In this document: positions 14,288 through 17,310 of the stretch, one piece after another
How positions within the stretch are numbered: position 1 is the first letter of the stretch
How the letters are laid out: the number at the start of each line of letters is the position of its first letter
Assembly: GCA_963726255.1 (NCBI GenBank)
Contig: CAVSBL010000002.1
Span: 1,792,001-1,856,000 of the forward strand
DNA length: 64,000 nucleotides
Direction: 5' to 3'
DNA from: Candidatus Bathyarchaeota archaeon
Lineage (GTDB): Archaea > Thermoproteota > Bathyarchaeia > 40CM-2-53-6
Translations under genes and position numbers: made by a program
The notes under the pieces: model-generated
The model's input: only the letters and a program-made list of their open reading frames with translations
Database searches by the model: none
Told to the model about the DNA's origin: nothing

Positions 14288-15214
14288 TTGATCGTAGCCC
14301 TAGCTGGAGGAGTAGGAGCAGCCAGATTCCTCGAAGGCTTGATTCGGGTAGTTCCGCAGAAAGAAATCACGATCATAGGTAACGTTGGAGACGACACAAA
14401 CATTTACGGCCTCCACGTATCCCCAGACTTGGACATCGTCACCTACACGCTCGCTGGCCTTGTCGACGCGCAGAAGGGGTGGGGTTTTCGTGGCGACACC
14501 TTTCACTGCCAAGCCCTACTTCGAAAGTATGGGTTCGAAACCTGGTTCAACCTCGGTGACCGAGACCTATCTACGCACATCTACCGCACGGAAGAACTTC
14601 GCCGGGGAAGACGGCTGTCGGAAGTAACAGCAGACTTGGTTTCACGTTTCGGTCTTCGAGTAAAACTGCTCCCTGCAAGCGACGACCCGCTCCAAACATA
14701 CGTTCGTTCCGGCGGGCGCCAAATGCACTTTCAAGAATACATGGTAAAACGAAAGACAAGGCCAACGGTTCAAGGAATCAGTTTCCGGGGGGCTGAATCC
14801 GCTCGGCCGGCAAAACACGTTACGGAATCAATTGGTAGAGCAAAAGGTATCGTTGTTTGCCCGAGTAACCCGATTGTTAGCATCGGCGCAATCCTAGCCG
14901 TTCGCAAGATCAAATCCGCACTGAAGAAGACCCGGGCAAAGGTTGTCGGGATCAGCCCAATCGTGGGCGGCAAAACTGTGAAAGGGCCAGCTGACAAACT
15001 GATGAAAGCGGTCGGGATTGAGGCGAGTGCATTTGGCGTAGCCAAGTGTTACAGCGACTTCTTAGACACGCTCATAATTGACCGCGTTGACAGGGCACTC
15101 GCACAGGATATTGAGGCTCTGGGAGTCAAACCGATCGTGATGAACACCCTGATGAGAGGATTGGCTGACAAGGTACGATTGGCAAGAGCCGTCAAAAGTG
15201 AATTCGAAGATTGA
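14288..15214 (+). CDS. cofD: 2-phospho-L-lactate transferase (F420 biosynthesis)
   Basis: 'LAGGVGAARFL.G', 'NVGDD', 'VSPDLD', 'WFNLGDRD', 'HFQEY', 'PSNPIVSI', 'VKGPADKLM'. Confidence 0.95.
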   Translation: MIVALAGGVGAARFLEGLIRVVPQKEITIIGNVGDDTNIYGLHVSPDLDIVTYTLAGLVDAQKGWGFRGDTFHCQALLRKYGFETWFNLGDRDLSTHIYRTEELRRGRRLSEVTADLVSRFGLRVKLLPASDDPLQTYVRSGGRQMHFQEYMVKRKTRPTVQGISFRGAESARPAKHVTESIGRAKGIVVCPSNPIVSIGAILAVRKIKSALKKTRAKVVGISPIVGGKTVKGPADKLMKAVGIEASAFGVAKCYSDFLDTLIIDRVDRALAQDIEALGVKPIVMNTLMRGLADKVRLARAVKSEFED

Positions 15215-15912
15215 AGAGACAGCCACGTCGAGGCGGACGCATACATGCGATAGTTCCTGTGAATGTTCTTAGGAAGTCCAAGGCTCGCCTTTCCCCACTA
15301 CTGAACCCTGTCGAGAGGGAGCAGTTAACTGTCGCAATGTTGAAGGACGTTCTCAGCGCCTTGAGAAAGGCGAAGAGGATTCATTCCGTAACAGTTGTGA
15401 GCGCCGATACGAGCGTGCGTAGAATTTGCAGGCGTTACGGGGCCAGTTTTCTATGGGAGGGGAAGCGGCGCGGCCTCAATAGGGGTGTCAAATTAGCTGT
15501 TAGTAATTCTGAACGAAGGGGCGCCTTGTCCGTCCTCGTGATTCATTCGGACCTTCCACTTCTCAAATCTTTGGAAATTGACATGTTCCTTAGGCGGTCC
15601 CAAGGGTACTCTGTGGCGCTCACCCCTTCCAAAGACCGCAACGGAACCAACGCCCTGCTCATGACTCCCCCCCATGTCATCCGCCCGGTTTTTGGGAGAG
15701 ACAGCTTCCGAAGGCACCTACGGCTTGCTAGGCAGAGGAACGTACGAAGCAAGGTGTTGCGGTTCAAGGGAATTGGCTTCGATGTTGACACGCCCCGTGA
15801 TCTCGTTCACTTAATGCATGTGCCGTTGCGAAATGAGTCAGGCCGATTCCTGCGGGCATTTCGCGAACGGGTCAGTGAATTACTGAGAGGTATTCAGGGC
15901 AAAGGAATTTAG
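15211..15912 (+). CDS. cofC: 2-phospho-L-lactate guanylyltransferase
   Basis: 'AIVPV....KSKARLSP.L', 'AMLKDVL', 'SDLPLL', 'GTNALL', 'FG..SF..H', 'DVDTP.DL'; follows cofD. Confidence 0.92.
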   Translation: MKRQPRRGGRIHAIVPVNVLRKSKARLSPLLNPVEREQLTVAMLKDVLSALRKAKRIHSVTVVSADTSVRRICRRYGASFLWEGKRRGLNRGVKLAVSNSERRGALSVLVIHSDLPLLKSLEIDMFLRRSQGYSVALTPSKDRNGTNALLMTPPHVIRPVFGRDSFRRHLRLARQRNVRSKVLRFKGIGFDVDTPRDLVHLMHVPLRNESGRFLRAFRERVSELLRGIQGKGI

Positions 15913-15937
15913 ATGCAGCTGGCTGTGCTTGGTTGGG

Positions 15938-17294
15938 GTGTTTGGTTTAACATCGCCTAAGGAAAGCCACGATAAAGTGCTGCAACTGCTTGAGCAGCAT
16001 CATAAGTGGTTTTCAGAATCGATTCCGTTGATCGCATCGGAGAACGTTCCCAGCCCCGCGGTTCGCGAAGCTATCGTTTCGGATTTCGGGAACCGTTACG
16101 CGGAATAGGCCTAAGCCGAGCTTAGGCCTCCGTAGGGATGGGTCGGGGAACGCATATACGCGGGCTGCGTATACATCGACCAGGTTGAGAGGCTCTGCAT
16201 AGACCTAGCAAAGGAACTATTCCACGCTGAATTCGCGGACGTTAGGCCCGTCTCTGGAGTTTGCGCAAACCTAGTGGTTTACACCACCTTCACAAACCCA
16301 GGCGACCGCATGCTCACTTTAGCCATACCGAACGGCGGCCACATCTCGAGTGGGCGGAAGGATTTCTCGGGAACTGCGGGCTCGGTCCACGGCTTGGAGG
16401 TAGAGTACTTTCCCTTTGACCGTCACGAAATGAACATCGACGTGGACAAGGCCAAAGCCAAGATCGAGAAGATGGCGAAGGAGGAAAACGAACCGCCCAA
16501 ACTTGGAATGTTCGGGGGAAGCCTCTTCCTCTTTCCGCAGCCTATCAAAGAGCTCGCCGAGTCATTACATAATGTTGGTGCAACCGTCGCCTATGATGCA
16601 GCGCATGTTGCCGGGCTCATTGCCGGAGGCATCTTCCAAGACCCGCTCAGGGAAGGCGCTGATGTAGTATGCCTGAGCACCCATAAGACGCTCTTCGGCC
16701 CGCAAGGAGGCGCGGTACTCTCCTTCGAAAAGTACGGAGCAAATCAAGAAGGCAACTTTTCCATCAAACACGAGCAACCACCACCTGCATCACCTAGCTG
16801 GAAAAGCGGTTGCTTTCGCGGAAATGTTAGAATTCGGAAAACAGTACGCTCGGCAAGTCGTGGCCAACGCCAAAGCCTTGGGCCAAGCGTTGCATGAACG
16901 GGGCTTTGCCCTACTGGGCGAGCACAAAGGTTTCACTGAGTCGCATCAAATCGCAGTTGACGTATCCAAGTTCGCTTTGGGCGGAGATATGGAAAGAGCA
17001 CTTGAAAGCGCCAACATAATCGTCAACCGCCAACTACTCCCCGGCGACATACAGGCCGGAAGGCACTACCAAAACCCAGGGGGCATACGCATCGGGACCT
17101 CGGAAATCACCCGCCTCGGGATGAAAGAAAACGAAATGGTGGAAGTAGCTGAGCTAATCAAACGAATCGTGATCGACAAGCAGGATCCAAAGAAAATCAA
17201 AGCCGACGTAACAGAGTTCAGAAAAGATTTCCAGAAGGTTCACTACTGCTTCGAAAACGCAAAGAAAGCCTACGAATACATCAGAATACGTTAG
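15938..17294 (+). CDS. glyA: Serine hydroxymethyltransferase, split by a 30-nt candidate intron (16106-16135) and a frameshift at about 16736
   Basis: Hand translation: 'IPLIASEN', 'GNRYAE|GWVGERIYAGC', 'RPVSG..AN', 'GGHIS', 'YDAAHVAGL', PLP lysine 'STHKTLFGPQGG', 'FPSNTSNHHLHH', 'GIRIGTSEITRLG'. Start uncertain (GTG 15938). Confidence 0.93.
16106..16135 (+). other. Candidate bulge-helix-bulge (BHB/BHL) intron in glyA mRNA
   Basis: TAGGCCTAAGCCGAGCTTAGGCCTCCGTAG: 10-bp hairpin (16107-16116/16120-16129), central helix GCGG/CCGU (16100-16103/16130-16133), bulges AAU and AGG. Carries 3 in-frame stops; removal restores YAEGW. Confidence 0.8.
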
Positions 17295-17310
17295 CCTATA
17301 GGGCTGGGGA

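Follow-up and report, generated by a model that had tools for sequence, protein, structure and literature searches.

The pre-mRNA of cbf5 in Desulfurococcales and Sulfolobales carries a bulge-helix-bulge (BHB) intron, reportedly the subject of earlier studies by Watanabe in 2002 and Yoshinari in 2006. In several Crenarchaeota this intron is seen to be spliced by cDNA, it splits the codon of a catalytic-site Asp, its patchy distribution has been read as a series of gains and losses, and its removal has been linked to hetero-oligomeric forms of the splicing endonuclease EndA, with cuts between the second and third residue of each bulge (PMC2738675). That 2009 paper regards cbf5 as the sole confirmed gene, and its survey places no cbf5 intron beyond these two orders (PMC2738675). 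A second archaeal mRNA with a BHB motif, HVO_1309 of Haloferax volcanii, is processed by EndA and was seen spliced in RNA-seq; a 2023 review counts "at least two" archaeal genes so spliced, HVO_1309 being the second, and expects more (PMC10485636). Here we describe a further candidate: 30 nt that interrupt glyA, the gene for serine hydroxymethyltransferase (SHMT), in a Candidatus Bathyarchaeota archaeon. The genome under study (G000) comprises 2.42 Mb in 5 contigs, and the window, i.e. the whole stretch of 64,000 nt that was analysed, is G000:C2:1792001-1856000; positions without a prefix are window positions, and all features of glyA are on the plus strand.

The first exon of glyA (15929..16105, 59 codons) is in the list of open reading frames (ORFs), has a putative TTG start at 15929 and ends in ...GNRYAE; the second (16136..17294) extends to the stop codon, with a shifted frame because 2 nt are absent after 16734. 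Translation of 15929-17297 gives ...SDFGNRYAE*A*AELRPP*GWVGERIYAGCVYID..., with GWVGERIYAG after the insert. Sequence and translation thus agree with the original prediction that the conserved SHMT motif NRYAEGW is split between E and G by an intron of 30 nt (16106..16135) with three in-frame stops (TAG at 16106-08, TAA at 16112-14, and TAG at 16133-35), and comparison with relatives, given below, places the same boundaries. The last codon of exon 1, GAA (Glu59, 16103-16105), and the first of exon 2, GGA at 16136, are in the same frame. The Pfam family PF00464 matches in three pieces: profile columns 4-50 in exon 1 (23.5 bits, alone below the cut-off), and columns 51-243 (125.6 bits) and 265-399 (84.5 bits) in exon 2. 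The insert hence falls between the adjacent columns 50 and 51, inside NRYAE|GW. In a genome-level search glyA scored 149.6 and 86.7 bits, so that the curated cut-off is passed and the match spans the whole profile.

The RNA of this region has the layout of a tRNA-type BHB motif, in which the two 3-nt bulges each follow, on the 3' side, their respective strand of the central helix. The 5' strand of this helix, GCGG (16100..16103), lies in exon 1 and consists of the Ala codon GCG (16100-16102) plus the Glu codon's initial G; it pairs with CCGU (16130..16133) inside the intron, giving 4 bp of which one is G.U. In archaeal pre-tRNA, likewise, the intron's 3' end finds its partner in exon bases (the anticodon). 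The 5' bulge is AAU (16104..16106) and the 3' bulge AGG (16134..16136). Between the bulge AAU and the intron strand of the central helix lies an inner hairpin (16107..16129), in which AGGCCUAAGC (16107-16116) and GCUUAGGCCU (16120-16129) form 10 bp free of mismatches, closed by the loop CGA, with a fold of -16.0 kcal/mol. All these elements coincide with those of the original prediction. In BHB motifs the cut separates the second bulge residue from the third (PMC2738675), and this geometry would place the cuts after 16105 (AA|U) and after 16135 (AG|G), a prediction and not a mapped site, which rejoins GAA|GGA in frame and free of a scar, with profile columns 50 and 51 contiguous. The same holds for all 22 inserts that we describe below.

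We consider it highly probable (roughly 0.9) that 16106-16135 is a BHB intron, of the relaxed, bulge-helix-loop (BHL) type, of the glyA pre-mRNA, removed by an EndA-type enzyme. In the transcript, GCGG of the exon would pair with CCGU of the intron so that two 3-nt bulges on opposite strands flank the helix, the 5' bulge being closed by the 10-bp hairpin, and the 3' bulge being loop-like with one closing pair. A two-subunit (alpha-beta)2 endonuclease would cleave each bulge behind its second base, and RtcB would ligate the exons at GAA|GGA, restoring NRYAE|GW through the junction ...TACGCGGAA joined to GGATGGGTC...; the excised intron would probably be circular. Translation of an unspliced message would end after residue 59.

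The strongest support comes from relatives. We searched 60 of them with exon 2 and then mapped 29 orthologous loci of other genomes with both exons. Fifteen of the 29 carry an insert that exactly separates ...GAR from GGN TGG, and the other 14 have none; the tblastn match of exon 1 to orthologs stops at residue 59 in 109/109 other loci. Many genomes of the same genus show a 386-aa open frame around the exon-2 match and no break downstream of the insert, as expected if a stop ends the insert and the downstream gene is unbroken. In the collection of species genomes the insert was found in 14 of 80 loci, three of them from further lineages (L051, L060, L099). Of 401 genomes drawn from the class, a degenerate pattern (NRYAE + 15-45 nt + GW.GE) matched 20, all in the order of the window (13/58 in f1, G000 not counted, 3/4 in f7, and 3/3 in family f8), and a reversed control pattern gave 0 matches over the same 401 genomes. 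The 296 genomes outside the order had no match to the insert pattern; the share of them having this type of SHMT was not established, as the insert-less pattern was not run. In total, 22 species genomes, G000 included, have an insert at exactly this site.

The lengths of the 22 inserts are 25 (three cases), 29, 30 (four), 31 (two), 32 (six), 33 (two), 34 (three), and 39 nt: 15 are not a multiple of 3, and every one of the 22 contains an in-frame stop. Exon 2 begins with GGN TGG in all of them, and in all, 3 or more closing pairs of the inner helix directly adjoin the 5' bulge. The central helix is complete (4 bp) in 19/22. Both 3-nt bulges are also present in 22/22, although this follows from how the register was constructed.

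The structure is kept by compensatory change in both the inner and the central helix, as an alignment of glyA from related genomes had been proposed to reveal. We scored the named structure in a MAFFT alignment of 16 sequences against shuffles and against controls in which the 3' partners were slid. Paired cells amount to 91.2%, versus 31.9-45.8% with the partners slid by 1-3 columns; these slid controls preserve the relatedness of the sequences yet score far lower. Changes on both sides are found for 8 of the 10 pairs of the inner helix, and cells with such changes number 34, versus 12.1 ± 3.3 in shuffles. None of 500 shuffles reached the observed covariation score, a count that is no probability since the sequences are related.

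Covariation in the central helix is the more telling, its 5' strand being coding. An Ala codon GCG is found with intron CCGU, CCGC or ACGC; GCA is found with CUGC (GCAG/CUGC, L051 of genome G300); and GCC is found with CGGU (GCCG/CGGU, L099 and three genomes of genus g11). The exon seems to bear the mark of this pairing too: the six bases GCGGAA immediately precede the site in 16/19 insert-bearing versus 9/75 insert-less unique rows, the insert-less rows having eight synonymous variants of the Ala-Glu bases. The comparative case is unusually strong because this covariation between exon and intron is combined with frame-breaking lengths in 15 of 22 species.

The genome encodes enzymes that could carry out the reaction. 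Two EndA-family genes lie at separate loci, in the regions G000:C2:748279-748530 on the minus strand and 1451759-1451998 on the plus strand. The product of one, of 188 aa, has 3p1z_B as its best solved match (E 8e-41, over the whole length); in the alignment, K44 of 3p1z_B is matched by a Lys, and so is R46. In the EndA of A. pernix, a loop specific to Crenarchaea confers the cutting of BHL introns, for which K44 within it is required (PMC3241643). The other, of 187 aa, when aligned with the M. jannaschii enzyme is gapped opposite the latter's His-containing stretch, which fits a structural beta subunit, and the endonuclease of this genome would then be of the (alpha-beta)2 form. RtcB is encoded as well (571 bits), so that, judging by homology, the host has both an endonuclease of the broad-specificity type and an RNA ligase.

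Further support comes from cbf5 itself. The cbf5 gene of G000 carries a 19-nt BHB insert (C2:296552-296570; loci L116, L117, L149) that separates the first letter from the second in the Asp codon of GGTL-D-PKVTGVL, with a central helix CCCU/GGGG, bulges AGA and UAA, and an inner stem of 3 bp. By pattern, 20 of 41 relatives have an insert at the same site, of 17-23 nt, with variants of the exon-intron helix that compensate each other (CCCU/GGGG, CCUU/GAGG, CUCU/GGAG). It is at this same place that the cbf5 intron of several Crenarchaeota is spliced (PMC2738675). The presence of the cbf5 intron in G000 and its relatives therefore indicates that BHB-type mRNA splicing very probably operates in this order. 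Together, geometry, occurrence in 22 genomes, frame-breaking lengths, covariation, selection on the exons (see below), EndA and RtcB, and the cbf5 intron favour the tRNA-type intron that had been proposed for glyA.

Several observations weigh against this interpretation. As the original prediction anticipated, the outer helix is weak: its sole contiguous pair here is C16099-G16137, and family f8 has 2 pairs. The motif hence departs from the strict hBHBh' form, with a strong inner helix (10 bp) and a weak outer one, and is relaxed and BHL-like. Cleavage at the 3' site would need an enzyme of relaxed specificity, a capability that we infer for the host enzyme from its likeness to characterized ones. 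In 3/22 inserts, the central helix has 3 bp and a G.A mismatch. The fold of a 66-nt stretch (-28.8 kcal/mol, z = -2.27) was equalled in stability by 5 of 200 shuffles, and its minimum free energy structure is in a slightly shifted register (A16104-U16129). It is not by energy that we take the structure to exceed chance, but because the same geometry is found at the same site in 22/22 insert-bearing genomes with different sequences. The RNA data do not reach the junction: RNA run X19 gave contigs at 16335-16533 and 16561-16714 only, none across it, and in RNA run X20, from a relative (15 other letters in 125), a contig ends at 16101, short of it. Splicing of glyA RNA is thus what the comparative evidence would lead one to expect. 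Lastly, the copy of glyA in the window is frameshifted in the assembly, and the case that it functions in G000 rests on DNA contigs.

These contigs bear on two other explanations, namely that the insert is an artefact of assembling or sequencing one genome, and that glyA is a decaying pseudogene, killed by a palindromic insertion and replaced by a second SHMT gene. An artefact could be suspected since the assembly has a 2-nt gap 600 nt downstream in the same gene: it is without 2 nt at 16734-16735 (one CG of ACGCGG), and this produces the apparent frameshift. Behind 16734, an inserted CG is present in the contigs of both DNA runs, X1 (which over 16346-16757 has 0 other letters) and X2, and three relatives keep the two bases, the restored frame reading ...FEKYAEQIKKATFPSNTSNHH... 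The insert is in the DNA contigs of both runs: one X1 contig spans it over 16042-16165, ungapped and with 1 other letter, and an X2 contig of 15,981 nt holds a variant of it. With same-site inserts in 21 other assemblies, we regard the chance of an artefact as negligible. Other contigs of X2 run from 16105 straight into GGATGGGTT...; taken as a spliced form, this candidate was rejected, as they are DNA of insert-less relatives (10-11 other letters in ~75). A dispersed repeat was likewise rejected: the 30-mer and the 23-nt hairpin are each single-copy in the genome (the 10-nt arm has 6 copies), and no repeat family was found.

That glyA is dead would account for both the in-frame stops and the frameshift of the window copy, and it gains some colour from a second intact ORF of the SHMT family (400 aa; G000:C2:208335-209381, minus strand, L001). 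This gene reads ...ANRYTSHEHYYMG... where the window gene has NRYAEGW. It is only 44-47% identical, and a similar gene co-occurs with the ortholog in many relatives, including those whose ortholog is free of an insert; by identity and co-occurrence it is best taken as a paralog and not a replacement. The frameshift, as described above, is seen neither in the contigs of the two DNA runs nor in relatives. What had been named as refuting the intron, i.e. an insert absent from reads, or a real frameshift at 16736 together with an intact glyA elsewhere, is therefore not what we found. Moreover, 21 other species genomes keep intact exons together with the insert, at dN/dS (the ratio of nonsynonymous to synonymous substitution rates) of 0.03-0.08 and with synonymous sites saturated in many pairs. 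Within the genus, insert-bearing orthologs compared with G000 have a dN of 0.010-0.111 in exon 2 and a dN/dS of 0.034-0.082 where dS is measurable (it is saturated in 5 of 11 pairs), and in exon 1 a dN of 0-0.095, far below the dS of 0.1-1.9. On these estimates both exons are under purifying selection, and because dN/dS is low a gene dead since before the species split is rejected. The covariation of the BHB motif, too, would not persist in a dead gene. A pseudogene hence appears very improbable.

Two further alternatives would leave the RNA uncut. In phage T4 gene 60, ribosomes bypass a stretch of message in which a stop follows the take-off codon and a hairpin comes next. In G000 a stop directly follows the last codon of exon 1 and then comes a stable hairpin, a layout like that of gene 60, so that ribosomes might hop over the insert. 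Such hopping is poorly supported by the other inserts: 9/22 open in frame with a sense codon (AAA, AAG or AGG); their lengths spread over 25-39 nt; and the take-off codon GAA finds no match among the last intron codons (UAG, CAG, UUU, UAU, CAC, CAU). Neither a compensating 4-bp helix between exon and intron nor 3-nt bulges at a fixed distance from the junction are predicted by bypass, which we consider very improbable. The stop at the end of the insert in G000, and an exon 2 that in relatives remains open as far as the gene end, would also suit a split gene, whose N-terminal peptide of 59 aa and C-terminal protein of 386 aa are made apart and then assembled. The second product would lack a start: there is no in-frame ATG, GTG or TTG near the beginning of exon 2, the first being at 16274, 46 codons downstream. 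The constant GGN TGG at the start of exon 2 (22/22), and a break that falls between adjacent profile columns in a conserved motif, also speak against separate proteins, and we give this arrangement very little credence.

Taking glyA to contain a BHB intron, the locus can be compared with the systems described at the outset. It shares with the cbf5 intron of Desulfurococcales and Sulfolobales the cut sites between the second and third bulge residues, the link to hetero-oligomeric EndA, the position at a catalytic-site codon and the patchy distribution (PMC2738675). It differs in its host gene, glyA encoding a metabolic enzyme and cbf5 an RNA-modification enzyme; in its occurrence in Bathyarchaeia and relatives; in its position between codons (phase 0), the cbf5 intron being inside the Asp codon; and in being known here from sequence alone, whereas cbf5 splicing has been seen as cDNA. 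With HVO_1309 it has in common the BHB motif in an archaeal mRNA and, by our reading, processing by EndA (PMC10485636), although Haloferax volcanii belongs to the euryarchaea and its enzyme is a homodimer (alpha2). With archaeal tRNA and rRNA introns of the BHB and BHL types it would share the 3-4-3 motif, the use of EndA and RtcB, the cut rule, and a central helix formed between exon and intron. Unlike these, its host is an mRNA, in which the exon side of the helix is constrained by coding and the Ala codon is fixed.

The original prediction raised the possibility of a regulatory link, and also suggested that glyA may harbour one of many hidden mRNA introns. Our scans of G000 lend the second suggestion no support, having recovered only glyA and cbf5; they were limited and insensitive, and do not establish that there are only two. 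A first motif scan returned 1488 candidates and missed glyA because it required 240 open upstream bases. A scan by codon score gave 7706 and then 2510 candidates, mostly gene boundaries, and was discarded as unusable. A scan for headless ORFs examined 175 ORFs with 176 motif hits, 12 of them with a clean single hairpin, and only glyA was convincing. A pair-based scan (36 pairs) recovered cbf5 and dropped glyA, and a scan for compact introns listed 32 candidates including cbf5, the remainder having weak helices. Candidate rows from the small contigs C1, C3 and C5 repeated those from stretches of C2 (for example C3:11163 and C2:1162772; C1:7725, C5:7651 and C2:2136031); these contigs seem to duplicate parts of C2, and may contribute to the 9.3% contamination figure of the genome.

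As for the surroundings of glyA, Pfam matches identify cofD and cofC upstream and a short-chain dehydrogenase downstream. The two genes of F420 biosynthesis, cofD and cofC (14288-15912), are on the same strand directly upstream, with 17 nt between the end of cofC and the putative start of glyA. ARAGORN found no tRNA in the window. On the whole genome, with introns allowed, it reported 30 tRNA genes, 26 of them flagged as intron-bearing; these intron calls are unverified and were not used as evidence. The tRNA set of G000 is probably incomplete, and the calls are hints of intron-rich tRNA genes.

The distribution of the glyA intron is uneven. We built a quick IQ-TREE phylogeny of 94 unique SHMT rows, rooted at the midpoint and without genus g11, on which the label "insert" changes at least 6 times, 5 of these changes being forced by well-supported branches. 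Rows with the insert make up 13/15 in the genus of G000 (one two-member clade is without), 1/8 in a neighbouring clade, 3/3 in family f8, and 1/2 and 1/5 in two clades labelled Nitrososphaerota. Either ancient presence followed by many losses or repeated entry could underlie this pattern.

Two of these lineages have similar introns: those of f8 (L024-L026) and that of L060 share AAAGCTT...AGCTT(C/A)CGCA(Y), the RNA of f8 being AAAGCUU...AGCUUCCGCAy and that of L060 AAAGCUU...AGCUUACGCAU. The SHMT exons of f8 and L060 are in different well-supported clades, that of L060 grouping with Nitrososphaerales, and the same helix positions vary freely within one genus. The shared sequence may thus reflect lateral transfer of the intron, for which reverse splicing, or gene conversion over the conserved flanks, would fit as a route. 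A broader and doubtful proposal treats BHB mini-introns as mobile elements, with the same catalytic-site codons in conserved protein genes being entered time after time. If this were true, SHMT synthesis would be gated by how much the tRNA-splicing machinery can process.

The site itself recalls that of cbf5, with the glyA intron directly after the Glu of NRYAE in parallel to the cbf5 intron that splits a catalytic Asp codon. We presume that the Tyr and Glu of this motif correspond to Tyr55 and Glu57 in the numbering of the E. coli enzyme. Both are active-site residues of E. coli SHMT (PMC7916883). In full-text literature, with subscription journals and supplements mostly outside the search, our search brought up no description of a BHB intron for glyA or SHMT, or for any mRNA of Bathyarchaeia, and the work on bulge-helix-bulge motifs that it returned for Bathyarchaeia concerned rRNA and tRNA only. 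On strong comparative support, the glyA intron would count as new, its host gene encoding a central enzyme of one-carbon metabolism and its host lineage, Bathyarchaeia, being widespread in sediments, and it bears on the origin and spread of BHB introns. Gene callers split or discard such genes, leaving here a 59-aa stub and a headless 386-aa ORF, and therefore SHMT may be wrongly scored as missing or broken when metabolism is reconstructed from metagenome-assembled genomes.

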